DNA of 64,000 bases from Candidatus Harrisonbacteria bacterium (GCA_016192685.1 JACPTS010000001.1:529099-593098); one strand, 5' to 3'; shown: positions 175-9,842, counted from the first letter of the stretch. The notes: generated from the sequence alone by a model not told the origin. Numbers and translations: made by a program.

Positions 175-684
175 ATGTTAACTAAACAACAAAAAAAAGA
201 ATCGGTAGATCAAGGCACGAAAAAGATTCAGGAAAGCGGCGCTTTAGTTTTTGCGGAGTATAACAAGGTTTTAGTTGAAGATTTTAAAAAATTGCGGCGG
301 GAGCTTAAAAAAGCCGGCGCGGATTTGAAAGTTTTAAAAAAGAGGCTGCTTAATATCGCGCTTAAAAATTCCGGAGTTAATTTTGATCCGATGACGGTCA
401 AAACTCAATTAAGCACGATTTTTGCTAAAGGGGATTTAATGTCTGTTGCCGGTTTGGTCCATAAATTTTCTAAAGATTTAACCAAGGCTAAGAAAGGTGA
501 ATTCGCGGTAATGGCTGCTTACGATTTGGCGGAAAAGCGTTTAGTGGACGCCAATGAATTTAAAGTGATTGCGACTTTGCCGCCGCGGGAAGTATTGCTG
601 GCGCAAATCGCCATGATGCTAACTATGCCATTAAAACAATTAATGATGACAATTAACGAACGGTCGAAACAAACACAACAATAA
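175..684 (+). CDS. rplJ: 50S ribosomal protein L10
   Basis: 169 aa with the typical L10 N-terminus and length, directly upstream of rplL. Confidence 0.85.
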
Positions 685-691
685 TTTTTTT

Positions 692-1063
692 ATGGAAAAA
701 TATAAAGAGTTATTAGATAAAATTGGAGATATGAAGGTGATGGAGTTGTCGGAATTAGTAAAAGCCATGGAAGAGAAATTTGGCGTTTCCGCGGCCATGC
801 CGGTTATGGCGGCTGGCGCCGGAGCGGCAGCCGGCGGAGAAGCGGAAGAAAAAACTTCTTGGGGGGTATTATTGAAAGAAGGCGGCGGCCAGAAAATCCA
901 GGTGATTAAAGTTTTGCGGGAAGTTACCGGAGTGGGATTGAAAGAAGCAAAGGATTTAGTTGATGCCGCGCCCAAAGTCGTGAAAGAAGGATTGAAAAAA
1001 GAAGAAGCGGAAGAATTGAAGAAGAAGCTGGAAGGCGCGGGCGCGACAGTCGAATTAAAATAA
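692..1063 (+). CDS. rplL: 50S ribosomal protein L7/L12
   Basis: 123 aa with an Ala/Gly-rich hinge ([14 protein letters not shown]) and a conserved C-terminal domain ([22 protein letters not shown]). Confidence 0.9.
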
Positions 1064-1122: not shown

Positions 1123-1194
1123 GGGCAGTTAGTTTAATGGTAAAACGCTGCATTCACATTGCAGAGAGCATAGGTCCGATTCCTATACTGCCCA
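1123..1194 (+). tRNA. tRNA-Val (anticodon CAC)
   Basis: Manual cloverleaf. Acceptor GGGCAGT/ACTGCCC, D-arm GTTT/AAAC, anticodon stem CTGCA/TGCAG with loop TTCACAT, T-arm ATAGG-TCCGATT-CCTAT, discriminator A, no encoded CCA. Confidence 0.7.
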
Positions 1195-2741
1195 CAAGTA
1201 GTAGCTAAATTGAATATGGCGAGTTTACGGGTGCGGGGGTGACACAAGTAGTCCAACGGTTCGTTTAATACCGCTTGGACTATTTGTTTGTCTCTAATAA
1301 CTAATTTTTTAAAAAATGTTTTTGCCAGTAACGCTTTAAGTTCTGGCGAGGCCTTTTTATAGGCATAGTTGCAGTTTGCGGCCAACGCCAAAGCAATTTC
1401 AATTGTTTTTAAAACATTGGCAATTTTACTCTCTGATTTTGCTAATTCCTCGTTGAGTCTCTTTTCCTCGGTTTCTAAATCCACTTTAACGCTTTGAAAA
1501 AGTTCTAAATCGTTTTCGCTGGCTTTATTATCAATAAGTTGCAAAACAAGATTTTTCTTGCGTTGCTTAATACTTTCAATTTTTCCCAAAATGTCGGCAC
1601 GGGCTTTTTCATAAACTCCCTGCTCATCTTTAAATAAAGTTTTAATTCTATTTCTTATTTTTTCAACAAGGTTATTTGGCAATTGCACCACTTTAAGGAT
1701 TTCTGTGAATTGGTTTAAATAATCATTTTCTTGGCCATAGCTTTGATTACAATTAACCCGCTTACTGTGTTGCGATTTTAGGCAACGCAAATATCTAACC
1801 AAATCGCCATTTTTAAGAGTATGTTCCTCCACTGTCATTTTGCTGCCGCACTCACCGCAAAAAGCAATTGTTTTAAGTATTGAAAATAACCTGCGGTTGC
1901 GGCTACCGCCCCCCAGTCGGGCATCAAGTATTGCTTGTGCTTTTTCAAACAACCCCCTGTCCAAAAAAACTTCGTGCTTGCCGTTGGGGTTAATTAAACT
2001 GCCCCAATCAATAACGCCAATATAAAACTTATCCCGAAGCATTTTAGCTAAAAAACTGGTGTGCATTTTGCCGTTATTCTTTTTATGTTTCCGCAATGGG
2101 AACCCCTCTTTTTCTAAAACTTCAGTAAGGGTAGCAATTGAATAATTGCCAGTCGCAAAAAGTTCAAATGCTTTAATAACCCATTTGGCTTCTTGCCAGT
2201 TTATTTCAACCCACGCCCTAACTTTCCCCGTAGCAACTTTTTCCTGAACATTTTTATAGCCGTAAGGGGCTCGTGTAGGCCACCACCCCTCTTTTAATTT
2301 TTGATACATACCAGATTTAACCTTTTCAGCATTTTGCAAAGAAAAAAACTCAGCCACGGAGGATAGCACTCCTTCAAGCATTTGCCCCGAAGGGGTTTTA
2401 TCAGTTCCTTCGGTGGCCGAGCAAATCCTAATGCCGTGCTGTTCAAGGTCTTTTTTTATCAATGCAAAGTCAATGCGGTTACGAGCCAAACGGCTAATAT
2501 CATAAAATATAACCGCTTTAACGGTTTTGTCAGTTCGGCAACGCTCCCAAAGAACCCTAAATTGCGGGCGGTTGGCAGTTCTGGCACTTTCGCCTGCGTC
2601 AGTGTAAATATCCGTTGTTTCATCAACCCCATAGCCGTTTTGCTTGGCATATTCAAGACAACGCTCTTTTTGGGCGGGAATTGATAATCCTTTTTGGGCT
2701 TGGCGGTCAGTGCTAACTCGCAAGTAAATTAACGCCGTCAT
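1134..2741 (-). CDS. Large serine recombinase (integrase) of an integrative element
   Basis: N-terminal resolvase catalytic domain (ALIYLRVSTDRQ with catalytic Ser, IFYDISRLARN), long C-terminal recombinase/zinc-ribbon region (CGECGSKM...C), 535 aa. The 3' end overlaps tRNA-Val in antisense. Confidence 0.85.
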   Translation of the reverse strand: MTALIYLRVSTDRQAQKGLSIPAQKERCLEYAKQNGYGVDETTDIYTDAGESARTANRPQFRVLWERCRTDKTVKAVIFYDISRLARNRIDFALIKKDLEQHGIRICSATEGTDKTPSGQMLEGVLSSVAEFFSLQNAEKVKSGMYQKLKEGWWPTRAPYGYKNVQEKVATGKVRAWVEINWQEAKWVIKAFELFATGNYSIATLTEVLEKEGFPLRKHKKNNGKMHTSFLAKMLRDKFYIGVIDWGSLINPNGKHEVFLDRGLFEKAQAILDARLGGGSRNRRLFSILKTIAFCGECGSKMTVEEHTLKNGDLVRYLRCLKSQHSKRVNCNQSYGQENDYLNQFTEILKVVQLPNNLVEKIRNRIKTLFKDEQGVYEKARADILGKIESIKQRKKNLVLQLIDNKASENDLELFQSVKVDLETEEKRLNEELAKSESKIANVLKTIEIALALAANCNYAYKKASPELKALLAKTFFKKLVIRDKQIVQAVLNEPLDYLCHPRTRKLAIFNLATTCGQYRNRTYALCNVNAAFYH

Positions 2742-2744
2742 AAT

Positions 2745-3233
2745 TTATTTATAACAAACCTCTAATCCATAAAATATTCCGTCTATATTTTTTAGTGATT
2801 TTATGCGAAAAGGGTAGTTAGAATTATTGAGATTACTCGCTGTTCTCAATTTATTTTCTTTCCAATTTTCTCTTTTGGGATACACGCTTATTGCACAGCC
2901 AAGGCCACCAGCATCAATCAAGCGGCCACCTTCGTCATAAAAGATTCCTAATACAAGACCTTCTTTTTCCCATTCTGCCCAACCAACCTCATCTAAGGGA
3001 TAACCCTTGGGTTCTTCGCCACGAAGAGGTGAGCCAATAGCTGTTTTTATTTGAGAAAAGGATTTCCCAAAAAGAGAGGGGATATCAAATATTATTCCTT
3101 GAGTTGGTAATGGTGGTTGAGAATCGCCAGTTGATATAATCACAATAAATAGGATAAACAATGCAGCAAAGGTCATCGCACCAATAGCAAACTTTTTGCT
3201 TGGCCAAGTTTTATTTGAATTTTGTAATTCCAT
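2745..3233 (-). CDS. Hypothetical membrane-anchored protein (island cargo)
   Basis: N-terminal hydrophobic helix FAIGAMTFAALFILFIVIIS. No recognisable domain. Confidence 0.4.
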   Translation of the reverse strand: MELQNSNKTWPSKKFAIGAMTFAALFILFIVIISTGDSQPPLPTQGIIFDIPSLFGKSFSQIKTAIGSPLRGEEPKGYPLDEVGWAEWEKEGLVLGIFYDEGGRLIDAGGLGCAISVYPKRENWKENKLRTASNLNNSNYPFRIKSLKNIDGIFYGLEVCYK

Positions 3234-3296
3234 TTTATTTTTTTAATTATAATTGCGACCTTTTGGCTAAACCTTTTAGAAAATAAAAAGGGACAG

Positions 3297-3430
3297 CCAG
3301 AACCTGCAACCCACAGTATTGAAAGCCGTGAAGCTCCCAATTGTGGAGGTTTGGCTGCCCCTTTCTGCCCGCAATTGGGCTAAGTAGCAGCTCTTCACGG
3401 AAAAACAATACTGTAGGTTGCATTTTTATT
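3297..3430. repeat. Long imperfect inverted repeat / structured intergenic element
   Basis: tgcaacccacagtattg...ccgtgaag...caattg is mirrored by caattggg...cttcacgg...caatactgtaggttgca, giving arms of about 40 bp. Confidence 0.5.
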
Positions 3431-3489
3431 TTAACACCATATATTTTGATTAGTAAATTACTCCAAAATGTCTTTTGATAAACTTGGTG

Positions 3490-3852
3490 CTAATTTTCAC
3501 AAATTTTAATTGTTAATGGCGACTTTACTGCGGTGCGTAATACCACTCCTTTCTTCGCAAAATTAGTAATATAGTTTTGTAAGTAGTCATCCGTTACAGA
3601 GTTTTGGTCATAAACGATTAAAATCCGTCTAACAAATTCCGTGCTCAGCATTTCTTGAAGCTGATTTATCGTGCGGATATTTGCATCACCACATTCTTCA
3701 TCGGCAATACATTCGCTGATGTAAATATCCGTTTCTGGATTTATGTCAAAACCATTTTCCTTTGCGTATTCTAAACATTTCTCTTTTCGTAGCCCCAACG
3801 ATTCTTTGTGAGGCGCACATTTATTTAGGTAAATTAACGCTTTATTTTTCAT
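3490..3852 (-). CDS. Degenerate serine-recombinase catalytic-domain paralog (catalytic Ser replaced by Cys)
   Basis: ALIYLNKCAPHK...KCLEYAKENGFDINPETDIY aligns to the integrase N-terminus ALIYLRVSTDRQ...RCLEYAKQNGYGVDETTDIY, but the S-TDRQ motif is lost. 120 aa. Confidence 0.6.
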   Translation of the reverse strand: MKNKALIYLNKCAPHKESLGLRKEKCLEYAKENGFDINPETDIYISECIADEECGDANIRTINQLQEMLSTEFVRRILIVYDQNSVTDDYLQNYITNFAKKGVVLRTAVKSPLTIKICEN

Positions 3853-3857
3853 ATTTT

Positions 3858-4337
3858 TTAGTTATTAGCCAATATTTGCTTACGGGCATTATTTAATTTA
3901 TTAACAAAGTAATCAGCTTCATTTTGCGGTAATTGCTGCACTATTTCATATAAACTAAATTCTTTATTGTTATTGCTTTCTACTGGTTTTGGCGGCTCAA
4001 GCCGTAAAAGTTCGGCCTGCCCCCTTAAAAGTTTTTGCAGTGCATTCAATGCACCAATTTTGGCATTGCTATTATCCGCCTCACTAAAAACGCACCAGCA
4101 TTCTTTAATTGCCAAATCGTAAGCCAATACCTGATTACAGAAATAGCGGTCAAGGTTTAATTTTTTATTACGATTACCTACTCGCCGTGCGGCCACCCGC
4201 AAATATTCTTTGGCCGTTGCCCAGTTTTTAATTCCAAGCCGCCGCATTATTTGATATGGCTTTTTAACGCCTATTACAAATAAAGCTTCAGTTTCGTCTA
4301 ATAAATATTCTCGGTCTATGTTTTTATGATTGGCCAT
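3858..4337 (-). CDS. Hypothetical protein (island)
   Basis: 159 aa ORF in the leftward island block, no recognisable motif. Confidence 0.35.
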   Translation of the reverse strand: MANHKNIDREYLLDETEALFVIGVKKPYQIMRRLGIKNWATAKEYLRVAARRVGNRNKKLNLDRYFCNQVLAYDLAIKECWCVFSEADNSNAKIGALNALQKLLRGQAELLRLEPPKPVESNNNKEFSLYEIVQQLPQNEADYFVNKLNNARKQILANN

Positions 4338-4535
4338 AATGTTGGTTGGGTTTCCCCTAAATTGTGCAATTTTGGCACAATTTTACTTATAGAGTGCAAT
4401 TCTTGCACTATTTTTACTTGCTTTACTTTTAGTAAAGGATAGTATGCTAATTTTTAGCTTAAAATCTTGTTTTCTTTTTCTTGCCTGCCCGCAATGAGCA
4501 AACGAAAGTTTGCTCATTGCTTGCTTGTAAAGCAA
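4338..4535. promoter_or_regulatory. Intergenic cluster of inverted repeats (candidate operators or origin)
   Basis: aattgtgc-aattttg-gcacaatt, agtgcaa-ttc-ttgcact, and a perfect 13-bp inverted repeat gcaatgagcaaac-gaaa-gtttgctcattgc. Confidence 0.4.
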
Positions 4536-5030
4536 TTATTTGACGGTATTTTCTGGGTTATTCTCTGTAATATTTTGCCCATAATTGCAATTTGTTTTGT
4601 TTGTTTCTACAAATTGATTTGTGGCTTCTGACGGCTGGGCATTGGTTTTGCGTAACAATTCTAACAGTTTAATGACATTTATTTTAAAATGTCTTTTGGG
4701 CGGCACTCCCTCTTTTTTAACCTCTAAAATCCCTAATTGCTTCCATTTTTTAATTGCTGTGTCTTGCTCGCCTCGCGTTAGTTTTGTTTCTTGGGACATT
4801 TCCTTAATGGTTTTATAAATCCACCCGACCTTTTTCCCCTTTTCCCACCAAAAAAGCAATTGCGACATAAATAAACCAGCATTGGCACTTTTAGCTAATT
4901 CTGCCAATAAAGGGTTAAATGCTATAGGTTTTGCGGATAAGGCCTCTAACAATATCCTATTATAATTTTTGGGTAGTTTTCGGGTCATATTTTTTAGATT
5001 TTTTAATTTTTGATAGTGAGCCGTGCTCAC
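4536..5030 (-). CDS. RepA_N / replisome-organiser-like winged-helix protein (putative replication initiator)
   Basis: Motif LFMSQLLFWWEKGKKVGWIYKTIKEMSQETKLTRGEQDTAIKKWKQLGILE resembles RepA_N/DnaD-like N-terminal wHTH domains. Confidence 0.45.
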   Translation of the reverse strand: MSTAHYQKLKNLKNMTRKLPKNYNRILLEALSAKPIAFNPLLAELAKSANAGLFMSQLLFWWEKGKKVGWIYKTIKEMSQETKLTRGEQDTAIKKWKQLGILEVKKEGVPPKRHFKINVIKLLELLRKTNAQPSEATNQFVETNKTNCNYGQNITENNPENTVK

Positions 5031-5031
5031 T

Positions 5032-5052
5032 ATTTTGATAATGGTTTAAATC
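5032..5052. promoter_or_regulatory. 9-bp inverted-repeat candidate operator upstream of the RepA_N-like gene
   Basis: atagtgagc-cgt-gctcactat, directly 5' of the minus-strand start at 5030. Confidence 0.4.
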
Positions 5053-5139
5053 CTTTGCGACAAACACCAAAACACGAGCAATGGCATCAATTACCATTTC
5101 GGTTAAGACCCCCTTGTTATCGGGCTGATTTTCCATAAA

Positions 5140-5200
5140 TTAACGCCCCCAAGTAGCAGCCCGCCACCTTGAGGGCGTTAATTTATGGGAGCTGCTACTT
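5140..5200. repeat. Nested hairpin with aagtagcagc/gctgctactt arms
   Basis: ttaacgccc...gggcgttaa nested with aagtagcagc...gctgctactt. The 10-mer aagtagcagc also occurs at about 3383, and a near copy (aagtagtagc) lies just 3' of tRNA-Val. Confidence 0.4.
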
Positions 5201-5270
5201 TTTCAAAATTAAAAAGGGCTATATGCCCTTTATACACCCACTTTTTATTTAGCCCCGCCAACAATTGTTA

Positions 5271-6077
5271 CTATTGTTGTCCGTTAATATCAATATCAAA
5301 CCATTGTTTAATTAACTTTTTAATACGCTTAAATGCATTACCGACAGCTCCCGCCGTTGTTTTTAGTTCTTTTGCAATTTCACGGGCTGTAACTTGGTTA
5401 TATCTAATAACTACATCTTTTTTATATTCCTTTTCCAAGCCCCGAAGTTTTTTGGGAGAATAAGTGCCGCTCTTTTTAGCTATCACTAAAAAGCTGGACG
5501 GTAAATAATCCTTGCGCCTAACTGGATTTCCAATTCTTTTAATCAGCTTGTCAAAAATAACTAAATCTCTTTTAAATTGTTTTCGTGAGCGTATTGGTAG
5601 TGTTGTTTCTTTGGAAAAATAAAGTTTCTGTAAGTTTTTTAAATCATTTAAAGCCAGTTTTATTTCTTCTTTGTCTAAAAGGGCAAAAGTTTTAATAGAT
5701 AAATAATCAACCTCGCCGCTTTTTGGCTGGTGCTCAATAACAAAATTATAAACAGGGGGCACAATTTTATTTTTTAGAATGTAAGCCCTCAACCCATCGC
5801 CAAACAAGTTGATAAGGTGATAAGGCAATTTAAATTTTCGCCCCAATTGTTCTAATTGATTGCCGAATTTTAAATTGTCTTCTTTTTCATTAAGGGCTCG
5901 CTGCCAATTTGCCATTTGTTCGTCAGTAATAATACCGCTGCTGGGTATGTTGAATTGTTGTCTAATCGCGACGGCTTCTTTCTGGAATTGGGGTAATCTA
6001 ATCAATAATTCAAGCCGCATTCGGTTACGAAATGCGGCAGAACCCAAATTGATTGGTTTTTCGCGGCGGGCTGCCAT
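5271..6077 (-). CDS. Hypothetical protein with C-terminal HTH (sigma-70 region-4-like)
   Basis: C-terminus VTAREIAKELKTTAGAVGNAFKRIKKL is a helix-turn-helix. 268 aa. Confidence 0.4.
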   Translation of the reverse strand: MAARREKPINLGSAAFRNRMRLELLIRLPQFQKEAVAIRQQFNIPSSGIITDEQMANWQRALNEKEDNLKFGNQLEQLGRKFKLPYHLINLFGDGLRAYILKNKIVPPVYNFVIEHQPKSGEVDYLSIKTFALLDKEEIKLALNDLKNLQKLYFSKETTLPIRSRKQFKRDLVIFDKLIKRIGNPVRRKDYLPSSFLVIAKKSGTYSPKKLRGLEKEYKKDVVIRYNQVTAREIAKELKTTAGAVGNAFKRIKKLIKQWFDIDINGQQ

Positions 6078-6170
6078 ACAGGCATAATTTAAGGGACTGT
6101 ATCCAAAAAATCAATATACTACCAGCTTGTCTTAAGTAATTTTATACGATAAAATAAAAGCACTTAAAAA

Positions 6171-6359
6171 ATGATTTCCAACGAGGCACTAAAAGAATTT
6201 AAGAAAATTTGGCTTGAAGAAAAAGGCACAGAAATTTCTGATGCGGAGGCAATGGATGAAGCATCTAATCTTTTGACTTTGTTCAATGCTGTTTATCGCC
6301 CCGTGAAAAAAGAGTGGCTGGAAAACCAACCAGAGGAAAAAGGAGATAAAAAATTATGA
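6171..6359 (+). CDS. Small hypothetical protein (first gene of cargo operon)
   Basis: 62 aa, acidic. Its stop overlaps the next start (ATGA), consistent with translational coupling. Confidence 0.35.
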   Translation: MISNEALKEFKKIWLEEKGTEISDAEAMDEASNLLTLFNAVYRPVKKEWLENQPEEKGDKKL

Positions 6360-6961
6360 TTATAGACTTCCCAAAAATCAAAGAAAATTTACACAAAGGA
6401 ATGGAAATTTTCTTACGACAAGAAATTAACCGTAAAGCTCCTTTTGCGGCAACGATTGGCAAACACTTCTTTCACGAAGGAGATAAGTCCTCTTACGAAA
6501 CAGTTGACCGTGAAAAAAAAGCTCTTGATTTTAAACGAGGCGAGAGTCAATTTACGGTAACTCGTGATGAAATGAATAAGTTGACCATAAAAGACATAAT
6601 TCAAAAAGTTCAAGGTATCGCAGAAGATATGGCGGGACAAATAGAGCGTAATCTATTCCAAACAATGAACGAAACTATTGAAAAGTCTGGCAATACAATA
6701 CCTGGTAATCCGCCGTTCTCGCCAGAAGCATTTTTGAAGGGTCTGGAAATGGTTGAAATTGATTTTGATGAGGATGACCGCAACAAACCTCAACTTCCCA
6801 CGCTGGTGATGCACCCAGACCTTGCGAAGAAAGCCAAAGAGCAGGAAGCCAATATGACAGCAGAGGAAAAGAAAGCCTTTGACGAAAAGATGAAGGCGAT
6901 GATAGATAAGAAATATGATGATTTTCTCACCAGAGAAGCCAAAAGAAAATTGGTGGACTAA
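6356..6961 (+). CDS. Hypothetical protein (cargo operon)
   Basis: 201 aa, charged/coiled C-terminus, no recognised domain. Confidence 0.4.
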   Translation: MIIDFPKIKENLHKGMEIFLRQEINRKAPFAATIGKHFFHEGDKSSYETVDREKKALDFKRGESQFTVTRDEMNKLTIKDIIQKVQGIAEDMAGQIERNLFQTMNETIEKSGNTIPGNPPFSPEAFLKGLEMVEIDFDEDDRNKPQLPTLVMHPDLAKKAKEQEANMTAEEKKAFDEKMKAMIDKKYDDFLTREAKRKLVD

Positions 6962-8615
6962 ACTCCTCTCCCGCCTTCTTGGAACGAAACCAGCAATTCA
7001 GGAGAGCGTGAAGGAGTCCAACCCGTTTTTGGAGCGAACCATTGAAAATTGGTTAAACTCCGCAAATGAAATGGGTTATTTAATGCCCTTCAGCCAGCTT
7101 CTGTTAAGCGAGGAATTTAGTATTTGTCATACCTCACGTCAAAATGCTTTTGAGCAAGGCAAAGATGTGGTTGCGCTTGATAAGCACGGAAGCTCCCACG
7201 CCTTCCAACTAAAGGGCGGCAACATTACGCATAGCAGATGGCTTAAGGAAGTTAAAGGAGAGATTGAGGAATTGATTGATTTGGCTATTGAGCACCCATC
7301 AGTCAGTAAAGGGAGTAAGCACAAATCTTATTTGGTAACCAACGGTGAATTGGAAGACACGGTGCGAGTGGCGATTGATAATCTTAATTCAAACAAGTGG
7401 AAGGAAAACCCTCTTGAAGTGATTACCTACGGACAACTTTTGAGGGGGTTTGTGGCATTAAGCAATACTTTCGTGCCGCAGAAAGTTGGAAACTATAAAA
7501 CATTCCTTGATTTATACTTCAGCAATGGCGGCGGGTTAATTGACGAAAGGATTTTCTCTGATTTTATCGCTGATGTCTTGAGACTGAAGGAAGACGGTTT
7601 GTTTAAAGAAGAACGGCGAAGAAACGTTGCGGCGGCTGTATTATATACGAGCTACATCCTTGCTCCGTTCAAAAAAGAAAATAATCACATCGCAATCATT
7701 CAAATTCTTACCCTGCTTGGGAGTCATATTATGGCTGTGGCAGAGAAGTTTTCCCTCCCAGAAAAGTATTGGGAAGAATCATTCAAAATCATACAAGACG
7801 AAATTTTCCTTACTGGAGGTAGATTACAGGAAGAAATTACAAACGATGGGCTGGTTACGCTCGTTAATTCAATGTGGGATGGCGAGATTGGTAGTTACAG
7901 AAGGCATCTGGCGGTGAGCTATCTATTCTCCTTCAAGTTAGCTCAACTTTTTGAAAAGAACACTCTGTGGAACAATGCGGTCAATGATGCGTTCTTCGTG
8001 AAGTTAAAAGATTCAATGAAACTGTGGGGCGAAGGCGCAATCTATTCATTGATTGTATGCTTCCTGTATGTGAATAGGGCTTTGAGTAAAAAAGAAGATG
8101 ATAGAGCATTTTCTCCGCTCTTTACTGCCCTTGAGGCAGTCTTAAAATTCAATAGTCCAGATAGTAAATTTGGTTTGTTGTCGCCATATTACGGAATCAC
8201 GTTTGCAATTAAGCGGCGGTATGGACAGCTTGAGGAACCGTTGGATGAAAAGTTCACTGGGCGGTCATTCTTGATACGGTCTCTGATTGACCTTTTGGCA
8301 CGCCACAGTAGGAGGTTAGAGTTGGAAAAGTATTGGAGAGCTATAACACATATAGCCCAAGACAAATTCATTCCTGAAGAATTATGGCAACATTTTACTT
8401 GGCATTGTGATAAGGGCGATAATCAATCCGAGTTTTCCAATCAAACTCAAAGCTGGATAGAGTTAGTAAAGAATGCTAATGCAATTGATTTTGACTCAAT
8501 ACCAAAAACCATTCAAACGCATCTGTCTTTTTTACCTCTTTTTTTACTTGTGTATCCGCACAGAATAAACAGTAATTATATAAAATTTTTAGATGAAACT
8601 GTTAAAAATGCCTAA
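6915..8615 (+). CDS. Large hypothetical protein with possible N-terminal PD-(D/E)xK-like nuclease motif (cargo operon)
   Basis: 566 aa. GKDVVALDKHGSSHAFQLKGG fits a D...(E/Q)xK pattern. The rest appears helical. The true start is uncertain because of a 46-nt +1 overlap with the upstream ORF. Confidence 0.4.
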   Translation: MMIFSPEKPKENWWTKLLSRLLGTKPAIQESVKESNPFLERTIENWLNSANEMGYLMPFSQLLLSEEFSICHTSRQNAFEQGKDVVALDKHGSSHAFQLKGGNITHSRWLKEVKGEIEELIDLAIEHPSVSKGSKHKSYLVTNGELEDTVRVAIDNLNSNKWKENPLEVITYGQLLRGFVALSNTFVPQKVGNYKTFLDLYFSNGGGLIDERIFSDFIADVLRLKEDGLFKEERRRNVAAAVLYTSYILAPFKKENNHIAIIQILTLLGSHIMAVAEKFSLPEKYWEESFKIIQDEIFLTGGRLQEEITNDGLVTLVNSMWDGEIGSYRRHLAVSYLFSFKLAQLFEKNTLWNNAVNDAFFVKLKDSMKLWGEGAIYSLIVCFLYVNRALSKKEDDRAFSPLFTALEAVLKFNSPDSKFGLLSPYYGITFAIKRRYGQLEEPLDEKFTGRSFLIRSLIDLLARHSRRLELEKYWRAITHIAQDKFIPEELWQHFTWHCDKGDNQSEFSNQTQSWIELVKNANAIDFDSIPKTIQTHLSFLPLFLLVYPHRINSNYIKFLDETVKNA

Positions 8616-8777
8616 TTGGCGACACTCATTAAGTTGGCCGCCGCCAATCGATTAAAGCAATTCTCAAACAAAATACGCTGGTATTCGCTTAATTTTTGCG
8701 ATAATGTATTGATGTATTCAATTAGTGTCCTGTTAAGCCCACCAAAATTAAAAAAGCTTCGTTAAACGAAGCTTTTT

Positions 8778-9449
8778 CTAATCTTCTTCTTCCTTCTTGG
8801 CTAATTCCGTGGCAACTATTGTAATCCCAATTTTTAACTGGCCAACGATTTTTTCCATATGCAATTCCGGTTGGGAATTTAAAGTTATTTCTACATAACC
8901 GTTTTTTGTGCCAGAGCTATTATAAGTAGTGACGCAAACCATTGATTTCCCATCTTTTTCAGTTTTTTGGAAAGTACCGTACATAGAGCCATCTTCTTTT
9001 TCAAAAAGGTTGTCAGTTTTAATTGTTTTTTCACCATTTTGTTCGGAATCATATATAAAGTTGAACAATTCAATTAAATTTTGGGCTTCTTCAGGCCGAA
9101 ATTCGGTATATTTCAGGAATTGAATGAAACTTTTACCATCCGTAGTATTTTCCAAAGAAAGCATTATTTTTTCTGGATGAAAATCCTCCGGACTAGCTGG
9201 CCAGGCATTAATTGAAACTATTTTTATTTTATTTTTTGGCTGCTCCTGATATTTTATTCTGATGCTTAATTCATCCCAATTTACGCCATAAAAAAACATT
9301 GCTATTTTTTGGTACCATTTTACATTTTGAAATTCAAGATCGTAATGAATTATTTGTTCTTTGAAATTTGTTTCTTCCGCGAAAGCAACGGCAGTGAAGC
9401 GGGAGATGAAGAAAAGAAGCAAGATTGGCGCGGTTATTAAGCGGGCCAT
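8778..9449 (-). CDS. Secreted hypothetical protein
   Basis: N-terminal signal peptide MARLITAPILLLFFISRFTAVAFA. 223 aa. Confidence 0.45.
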   Translation of the reverse strand: MARLITAPILLLFFISRFTAVAFAEETNFKEQIIHYDLEFQNVKWYQKIAMFFYGVNWDELSIRIKYQEQPKNKIKIVSINAWPASPEDFHPEKIMLSLENTTDGKSFIQFLKYTEFRPEEAQNLIELFNFIYDSEQNGEKTIKTDNLFEKEDGSMYGTFQKTEKDGKSMVCVTTYNSSGTKNGYVEITLNSQPELHMEKIVGQLKIGITIVATELAKKEEED

Positions 9450-9710
9450 TCCTTTTAAATTTTTATTTTAAATAACCTTTTTAAGGTTATTCTATTTTTA
9501 TGAAAATCACAAGTCTAATCAGGCGAAATTCCAGGGTGTGGATAACCTGCGGATAAAAAAGCCATTTTAGCTTTATTTTTTAGCCTATTTTGGCGCTGGC
9601 TGGCATTGTTAAATTTTTAATCCAAGTGGGGTACAATTAAATGGTAGTGGGGAATTGTGGATAAGTATGGGGATAGAGCGTCAATCAGGGGATAAGTTCC
9701 ACTCGCTGTA

Positions 9711-9842
9711 CCTTTCTTTCTATCGGCACCGGCGTCGCTTCGCTCCAGCGGCGAAGCGCGCCTACGCCTCGCTCCGAAAATTTTCGCTTCGCGAAAAACC
9801 AATCTTTTTGGAGCTCCGTAGTTGCCGTACAAAAGAAAGGTA
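9711..9842 (+). repeat. GC-rich palindromic repeat element, family A, copy 1
   Basis: Core cggcaccggcgtcg...cgcctacgcctcgctccgaaa...ttcgcttcgcgaaa...ggagctccgtagttgccg with terminal inverted repeat acctttct/agaaaggt. Sits at the right edge of the integrative element. Confidence 0.7.

Follow-up and report, generated by a model that had tools for sequence, protein, structure and literature searches.

A serine integrase gene of Candidatus Harrisonbacteria that probably contains its own attachment site and is split by integration at a tRNA-Val

The analysed stretch of Candidatus Harrisonbacteria DNA (64,000 nucleotides, below referred to as the window) very probably contains a 7.5-kb element inserted at the 3′ end of a tRNA-Val gene by a large serine recombinase (LSR) that carries attP inside its own gene, so that integration has split this gene. 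LSRs as a class recombine attP with attB, and their excision reaction needs a directionality factor. In the proposed mechanism the excised circle would encode an integrase of 558 aa, whose codons ~505-530 would double as attP, and attB would consist of the T-arm, acceptor 3′ strand, discriminator, CCA and trailer of tRNA-Val. Strands of attP and attB would be exchanged within CCAC, most likely at the CC at 1192-1193. After integration the integrase ORF would be cut past G517 and run for 18 arbitrary codons antisense into the tRNA, and a two-helix tail of 41 aa would be left behind at attR (8736..8615), beside the original CCA and terminator.

The prophage form of the integrase is an ORF of 535 aa at 1134..2741 on the minus strand, taken from the ORF list, whose C-terminal end reads ...FNLATTCGQYRNRTYALCNVNAAFYH. 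It contains a Resolvase domain of the Ser-nucleophile catalytic type (PF00239, E=6e-32, residues 3-152), a Recombinase domain (PF07508, residues 183-275) and a Zn_ribbon_recom domain (PF13408, residues 289-337), and on these domains the protein is classed as an LSR, in agreement with every sequence and fold criterion tested. The Pfam domains are those of serine recombinases only, and the tyrosine recombinase domain is absent. In an alignment of 45 homologues R8, S10 and Q14 are nearly invariant and the zinc-ribbon cysteines C295, C298, C320 and C331 are invariant; the ORF is intact, with the catalytic and Zn-ligand residues kept, and the catalytic and DNA-binding domains are all placed upstream of the cut at G517. 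The AF2 model of a relative in the native form, protein P0013 (mean pLDDT 84), has predicted coiled-coil helices at 356-404 and 409-455, embedded in the zinc-ribbon domain, and matches the structures of SPbeta, phiC31, Bxb1 and A118 integrases (best 9dxd, 9rah, 9iu2 and 4kis), with alignment over the full length to the SPbeta and phiC31 integrases. A sequence search of the PDB aligned residues 4-344 only and, since similarity to solved LSRs ends at about residue 344, it is uninformative on the tail. The protein collection holds 237 relatives at E<=1e-10, mostly from Patescibacteria-type metagenomes.

The host gene for tRNA-Val(CAC) occupies 1123-1194 on the plus strand (ARAGORN, 1123-1195; Rfam RF00005, 71 bits) and the host genes rplJ and rplL (175-1063, plus strand) stand at the window start. 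It was originally predicted that the recombinase 3′ end is encoded antisense through the whole tRNA. The overlap is real, but it extends over 1134-1194, that is 61 of the 72 bases, and the first 11 bases (1123-1133), which comprise the 5′ strand of the acceptor, positions 8-9 and two bases at the start of the D stem, stay outside the ORF. The overlap comprises the stop codon (1136..1134), 18 full codons, the G517 codon and one nucleotide of the C516 codon. Residues 1-517 are native, and residues 518-535 (nt 1190..1137), which read QYRNRTYALCNVNAAFYH, are the antisense-tRNA read-through. The tRNA is intact through the discriminator A1194, after which the integrated state reads CAA, the native CCA being displaced. 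The tRNA-Lys and tRNA-Pro genes of the window also have no encoded CCA, so that the host must add CCA enzymatically.

The alignment of the recombinase C-terminus to homologues, which had been named beforehand as the test of the overlap, gave a clear answer. Among the 45 homologues (43-84% identity) conservation continues through ...NEPLDYLC-x8-P(I/V)F-x-L-x4-G and then ends, the column of G517 being the limit of homology, and the tRNA-overlapping residues are not conserved. Beyond this glycine the tails differ from protein to protein, in one common frame, and resemble antisense translations of different tRNAs (..NRT.., ..PYRIRTCDPLIANEVLYQLS). The overlapped codons, which had been described as the 3′ end of the recombinase gene, are thus a fortuitous read-through, whose length varies with the tRNA that was hit: the tail counts from one residue to well over 100, and the overlap ranges among relatives from -8 to several hundred nt, as set by where a stop codon falls, so that the overlapping residues are no conserved C-terminus. 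Homology does end about 20 aa early, but what this points to is not a non-functional overlap: the real C-terminus is found at the other end of the island.

The position of the overlap is reproduced across the family. Among the loci scanned for tRNAs (31 from genomes and 63 from metagenomes), 28 of the 29 with an adjacent tRNA or tmRNA have the integrase ORF running antisense into its 3′ end in one fixed register, and the same register of entry is met across clades down to 33% identity. The targets are tRNAs for Val, Ala, Lys, Met, Leu, Gly, Arg and Glu as well as tmRNA. So many junctions in the same register place the overlap far beyond chance, and the reading of the overlap as the footprint of site-specific integration at a tRNA is confirmed. 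In a more distant clade, labelled Solirubrobacterales, the ORF runs into tRNA-Lys and tRNA-Leu in another frame (..MVPRAGLEPP), and there too the arithmetic of the arm motifs puts the crossover at the acceptor end.

Several loci of the family depart from this picture or add to it. A 69%-identical integrase at L050 is fused after the core to a sequence (~4260-4333) that ARAGORN calls no tRNA, yet TCGAA is present in it at attB spacing (columns 45-49 of the att alignment described below); this sequence may represent a pseudo-attB or the remains of a tRNA that has decayed. At L052 (7575-7731) the ORF enters a short tRNA-like 3′ fragment (..GGPGGTRTRV..), with a complete tRNA-Ala 85 nt beyond, and this fragment may have been left behind by a previous insertion or stem from duplication of the att region. 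At L064 and L067 (6472-6548) ARAGORN calls a suppressor-type tRNA (anticodon TTA, 'tRNA-Stop') in the island, upstream of a related integrase.

Where no tRNA follows the integrase gene, the conserved glycine is followed by a conserved tail of about 40 aa, ..SLLEYIKSLPQRMSKYQGVLWENCYNHLRAVALP. The set of such native forms consists of loci L053 and L054 (protein P0015), locus L072, and proteins P0013, P0093 and P0070; hence the tail is contiguous with the integrase in three contigs and in three further database proteins. When the native-form tails were compared with the window by tblastn, one significant match was obtained, at 8740..8630 on the minus strand (E=1e-10, 51% identity), with the translation GLNRTLIEYINTLSQKLSEYQRILFENCFNRLAAANL. 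Together with a tail HMM and the reconstruction of the junctions, it delimits a displaced native C-terminal exon of 41 aa, LNRTLIEYINTLSQKLSEYQRILFENCFNRLAAANLMSVAN, at 8736..8615 on the minus strand, with the stop codon TAG at 8614..8612. In the reconstructed circle the exon is in frame with G517, and joining the two island ends gives an uninterrupted ORF of 558 aa (517 + 41). In a comparison of the window with the related island L049 the exon has a pN/pS of ~0.27 and the integrase body one of 0.15, which indicates that the exon is kept as coding sequence.

A profile of the tail detected a displaced exon in seven further integrated relatives, always upstream of the integrase gene and on its strand: L049 (tRNA-Ala, island ~8.1 kb), L051 (tRNA-Ala, ~6.1 kb), L001, which equals L078 (tRNA-Val, ~7.8 kb), L007 (tRNA-Lys, ~4.5 kb), L004 (tRNA-Lys, ~11.2 kb, with a weak exon match), and L002 (~9 kb) and L066 (~3.8 kb), both at non-tRNA targets. 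These seven have a core of 4-8 bp at both junctions (GTGG, GTGGAC, AATGGGCG, TGGTGG, TTGGTGGG and TGTGA), and attB reconstructed for L004 again reads from tRNA to CCA to terminator. In the actinobacterial loci L015-L022 and related ones, including the cultured Svornostia abyssi J379, whose integrase gene adjoins tRNA-Leu at about 2.806 Mb of NZ_CP088295.1, neither the L016 tail as query nor a core-plus-motif scan gave a convincing match to a displaced exon within the 10-kb flanks, and these islands probably exceed such flanks.

In the AF2 model of P0013 the tail forms two predicted helices (522-532 and 535-551, pLDDT ~83-86), which come after a loop containing the crossover codon. A homologous motif, ..LTPEQEAxIESCYHELRGRxLL, closes the 580-aa relatives labelled Acidobacteriota, which do not adjoin tRNAs, and for this reason the tail can be regarded as an old module of the subfamily, just upstream of which the tRNA-targeting clade appears, on comparison of the sequences, to have placed its attP. 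The 580-aa relatives also have a second, free-standing copy of the tail module 270-460 nt downstream of the intact integrase gene (L014, 9222-9398; L011, 11980-12141; L009, 12067-12237), whose homology starts exactly at the core-equivalent TGTGCGC. This copy might serve as a reserve cassette for the tail, or be what is left of an attR, and the integrase would exchange its tail if the two cores recombined.

The location of the exon fixes the boundaries of the element. By junction reconstruction it extends over 1196..8742 (7,547 bp, one copy of the core counted) and is bordered by the identical hexamer GCCCAC at 1190..1195 (attL) and 8737..8742 (attR). The attL copy covers nucleotides 69-72 of the tRNA, the discriminator 73 and the first base of the trailer. 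On the integrase strand attL reads ...TTCAATTTAGCTACTACTT GTGGGC AGTATAGGAATCGG... and attR ...GAAGCTTTTTTAATTTTG GTGGGC TTAACAGGACACTAATTGAATAC..., and identity between the two junctions is limited to these 6 bp. The native 3′ context of tRNA-Val lies beyond attR on the plus strand (8742..8778), with CCA at 8742-8744, of which the first C is shared with the core, and a hairpin at 8750-8778 that the terminator scan rated as a strong, bidirectional terminator. When the flanks are joined, tRNA-Val is followed by CCA and then by the terminator, as would be sensible for a native tRNA locus. The reconstructed attP junction is GTTAAGCCCACAAGTAGT (in longer form ...GTGTCCTGTTAAGCCCACAAGTAGTAGCTAAATTG...), and the reconstructed attB junction is ACTGCCCACCAAAATT (in longer form ...CCTATACTGCCCACCAAAATTAAAAAAGCTTCG...). 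Host genes continue beyond attR with a convergent ORF of 223 aa (8778-9449) and with mraZ/rsmH/ftsI/mur from 9895.

The original prediction that attP lies within or next to the integrase gene is borne out, as it was found inside the ORF, 41 codons upstream of the native stop. Its further claim that integration rebuilds the tRNA does not hold, since the whole tRNA is host DNA, the junctions share 6 bp and a displaced tRNA fragment is missing; tRNA-Val is preserved because attP and attB have the 6-bp core in common. A second copy of the tRNA-Val 3′ half was not found in the window (search with 3 mismatches; blastn-short), Rfam at E<=10 detected no tRNA fragment near the island end, and no displaced tRNA fragment is present in 20 related loci, from which it follows that the tRNA was not rebuilt from element DNA.

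Two explanations would do without an intragenic attP. The integrase ORF might simply have no stop codon before a neighbouring tRNA, the overlap being a chance read-through or an annotation artefact in which recombination has no part. The position of the stop within the tRNA is indeed arbitrary and varies between relatives, but chance would have to yield the identical register at almost every tRNA-adjacent locus, in clades as distant as 33% identity, and also, in eight elements, the location of the missing C-terminal exon at the opposite island end, which makes this account extremely improbable. It is hardly more credible, though a little less remote, that attP carries the 3′ part of a tRNA, as in islands formed by tyrosine integrases, and that the 3′ portion of the host tRNA was replaced by DNA of the element. 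In at least 13 samples Logan contigs are interrupted at the 30-mer 1132-1161, and this could mark a polymorphism in the tRNA body. Against replacement stand the missing displaced tRNA 3′ fragment (in the window, near attR and in the 20 related loci), the mere 6 bp of identity between the junctions, and the native CCA and terminator that abut the attR core; moreover, the DNA after G517 in native-form relatives encodes the conserved tail and is not tRNA-like.

Splitting of the integrase gene at an attP of its own, which remains the preferred reading, is also reflected in the anatomy of the att sites. As judged from arm alignment and sequence, attL occupies 1170..1219: its B arm is the acceptor 3′ strand and T-arm of the tRNA, with the T-loop motif TCCGA at 1175-1179, and its P′ arm lies inside integrase codons ~505-516, with the motif TTGAA at 1210-1214. 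Delimited in the same way, attR occupies 8712..8765, with the P arm inside the tail exon (TTCAA on the plus strand at 8717-8721, TTGAA in integrase sense) and the native tRNA trailer as B′ arm. The reconstructed attP, TTCAA..N35..TTGAA, is therefore contained in the integrase's own ORF, in codons ~505-530, and is centred in the GGG codon of G517. In a stack of 21 attL, 8 attR and 2 native attP sites, anchored on an invariant T, attP shows TTC.A in columns 10-14 (P′ arm) and TYGAA in columns 50-54 (P arm); the two form an inverted repeat whose centre, column 32, falls mid-way in the GGG codon, and the motif is placed at +/-18.5-22.5 from the centre. Of 114 loci, only the three in native form show the complete attP pattern.

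The tRNA-derived B arms, read antisense, have TCGAA in columns 45-49, exactly 5 bp nearer to the centre than the attP motif, and this antisense TCGAA is the universally conserved T-loop sequence. It is known for LSRs that attB has the motif bound by the zinc-ribbon domain 5 bp nearer to its centre than attP does (PMC11722253), and a phiC31 preprint places this domain (ZD) at +/-17-27 in attP. The match to the published rule leads to the inference, drawn from spacing only, that the zinc-ribbon domain may read the T-loop as its attB motif, which would explain why close relatives are found in different tRNAs and in tmRNA. The model is weakened by the B′ arms: the 5-bp shift holds for one half-site only, that of the tRNA B arm, and the trailers that form the B′ arms have no conserved motif in the stack, which is atypical for attB of an LSR. 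In L002 and L066, which use non-tRNA sites, the right arms are without TCGAA at attB spacing.

The junctions of the integrated elements share only 4-8 bp, which would be compatible with the 2-bp crossover of LSRs. Placed in register, the identity blocks of eight elements intersect in 4 nt, RTGG in integrase sense or CCAY in tRNA sense, which are tRNA nucleotides 71 and 72, the discriminator 73 and the next base. We infer that the crossover falls within CCAC (1192-1195) in the window. The symmetry centre of attP and the need for an identical dinucleotide at both junctions favour CC at 1192-1193 (tRNA nucleotides 71-72), which is the most likely crossover dinucleotide on the alignment.

Besides the integrase the element encodes a dead resolvase-like paralogue, a replication-initiator-like protein and hypothetical proteins, a content that it has in common with island L049. 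The paralogue (120 aa, 3490..3852, minus strand) was recognized by sequence comparison and by tblastx to integrase N-termini; its N-terminus, MKNKALIYLNKCAPHKE.., lacks the catalytic Ser and Arg when set against the integrase catalytic domain, MTALIYLRVSTDRQ.., and it has no Pfam or PHROG match. It is also present in L049, and as a degenerate catalytic domain it is a possible candidate for a partner or regulator of the integrase. The initiator (phage O-like/DnaD-like, 164 aa, 4536..5030, minus strand; PHROG phrog_9773, E=3.7e-29) suggests, by homology, that the excised element may replicate as an episome. No recognisable capsid or conjugation genes were found in the 7.5 kb, and the element looks more like an integrative plasmid or a satellite than a prophage. 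Between two of the island ORFs (3285-3366, minus strand) there is a hairpin of ~35 bp with a U-run, which is conserved at the DNA level in L049 (5766-5950) and L051 (4135-4263). RNAalifold on the three sequences gave 48 pairs, 10 of them with compensatory changes, and no Rfam family was matched; the hairpin could correspond to an sRNA or, alternatively, serve the element as replication origin or terminator.

A different end of the island was considered as well, at ~9790, as the Logan contig L032 spans exactly 1132-9790. This candidate was rejected because these ends share no core and the exon match places attR at 8737-8742. In at least 13 samples the ends of Logan de Bruijn contigs fall at 1132-1161, inside the tRNA, and at 9779/9790, about 100 nt upstream of mraZ. 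Given that no core is common to the 1132 and 9790 ends, these breaks are regarded as unrelated to the att sites, and they may be due to other, related tRNA-Val genes in these samples or to variation between strains there.

The mobility of this copy is a separate question. Neither an excised circle nor an empty attB was found among public contigs, where an exact look-up of RplL, MraZ and the 223-aa neighbour protein gave contigs that have the island or stop before the junction. IMG/VR contains relatives of ~25% identity only and no match to the attP pattern, and a circularity check of the native-form contigs (L053, L054 and L072) showed no overlap of their ends. It is conceivable, though we think it rather unlikely, that the architecture is as described but that this copy is a fixed, immobile relic, unable to excise and with an inactive truncated integrase of 535 aa, much as SSV-type integrases are disabled once they have integrated. 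Such a state would fit the missing empty site and circular junction in every sample and the presence of the island in all seven contigs that bear the gene for the 223-aa neighbour; besides, the tail is predicted to be structured and is conserved back to the 580-aa clade, so its loss could disable the enzyme. On the other hand, the integrase ORF is intact, its catalytic and Zn-ligand residues are conserved, and everything that binds or cuts DNA is encoded upstream of the split; between lineages purifying selection acts on the displaced exon, which is itself intact, and the large number of separate insertions, in various tRNAs, implies that the family continues to move.

No firmer is the idea that the exchange of tails is a built-in switch, in which the tail is needed for integration or for binding of the directionality factor (RDF) and the tail-less prophage form has another directionality or stability. 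In SPbeta SprA and phiC31 Int a role in directionality or in contact with the RDF has been ascribed to the far C-terminal end (Abe 2021, as cited in PMC11722253; phiC31 preprint), and Mx8 IntP takes on other properties once its C-terminus has been altered by integration (PMC6070905). By analogy with these three proteins a regulatory role of the tail seems plausible; the conservation and predicted structure of the tail agree with it, and the integrase might have a partner in the inactive catalytic-domain paralogue of the island. Yet the replacement tails, of one to well over 100 residues, have no conservation, hence any effect would arise from loss of the tail and not from gain of a new one, and the whole arrangement could merely reflect genome compaction. 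That loss of the tail alters the activity or directionality of the integrase in the prophage state is thus a speculation. Only tentatively, then, can the family be proposed as a widespread clade of serine integrases, represented in Patescibacteria and among relatives with Solirubrobacterales and other labels, that came to recognize as attB the universally conserved T-loop and the acceptor end in genes for tRNA and tmRNA, and whose intragenic attP would reversibly exchange a C-terminal module and so act as a self-encoded switch of activity or directionality.

In its basic design the integrase resembles phiC31, Bxb1, SPbeta SprA and A118/LI Int, with catalytic and recombinase domains and a zinc ribbon with embedded coiled coil. 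As in other large serine integrases, attP is an imperfect inverted repeat of ~45-50 bp and the distal arm motif is 5 bp nearer to the centre in attB, here in one half-site, and the reconstructed att sites may likewise be short and free of a long direct repeat. However, known large serine integrases have attP outside the integrase ORF and attB in protein-coding or intergenic DNA, whereas in the present family attP is inside the ORF, attB is the 3′ end of a tRNA or tmRNA, and the protein has an extra, conserved two-helix module at its C-terminus, as predicted by AF2. To our knowledge, serine integrases are the textbook example of enzymes that do not use tRNA genes.

The closest parallels are found among tyrosine recombinases. 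The target of Mx8 is a tRNA gene, and so is that of SSV, in which the split gives large N- and C-terminal parts and inactivates the enzyme. In the mycobacteriophages BPs and Brujita attP is located in a phage gene and integration swaps the C-terminus of a protein, which provides integration-dependent immunity; there, unlike here, it is the repressor gene that is cut and not the integrase gene, and the integrase is a tyrosine recombinase. The attP of Mx8 lies in the coding sequence of intP, and integration gives the gene a new 3′ end and the protein a changed C-terminus (PMC6070905 and PMC4383910). The present integrase is like Mx8 IntP in that attP is intragenic and integration alters the C-terminus, but IntP differs in its tyrosine chemistry, its longer common core, and in being known from a single phage rather than a family at many tRNAs. 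In the SSV-type (fusellovirus) integrases of Sulfolobales the ORF crosses attP and integration partitions the gene (PMC4383910). They differ as archaeal tyrosine recombinases, and the present element loses just a tail of 41 aa. As only serine-recombinase domains are present, the integrase would work like those of Mx8 and SSV without being a member of their family. Islander-type tRNA islands combine a tyrosine integrase, a replacement tRNA 3′ segment and a displaced fragment left as a repeat, none of which is found here.

Use of tRNA genes by serine integrases has been indicated computationally before. In the TIGER survey 14 of 297 predicted serine-integrase islands were placed at t(m)RNA genes (Mageeney et al., 2020; PMC7192596), where the authors remarked that this use 'has not been reported previously' and still requires proof. 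The original prediction was right that the arrangement is unusual for a serine integrase. That survey gave no clade, att anatomy, intragenic attP or T-loop spacing, whereas the present family has dozens of independent cases. A large LSR-mining preprint has no mention of tRNA, and full-text search of the literature found no serine integrase with intragenic attP, nor any at tRNAs in Patescibacteria. We found no description of this family in the literature searched, and the split-integrase layout, known in tyrosine integrases, appears new for serine ones.

The family supplies dozens of independent cases of tRNA use by serine integrases with a coherent att anatomy. The parallel with the unrelated tyrosine integrases of Mx8 and SSV suggests, as far as the analogy holds, convergent evolution of integrase remodelling that is coupled to integration. 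There is a practical side as well: most database entries of the family, the 535-aa protein included, are chimeras with antisense-tRNA C-termini and without the true 41-aa tail, so that a protein synthesised after mining integrated copies for LSRs would be the wrong one. If the zinc-ribbon domain reads the T-loop, this would give a simple account of how such elements hop between tRNA targets, and the family would offer a natural scaffold for integrases directed against a sequence that is present in every genome.
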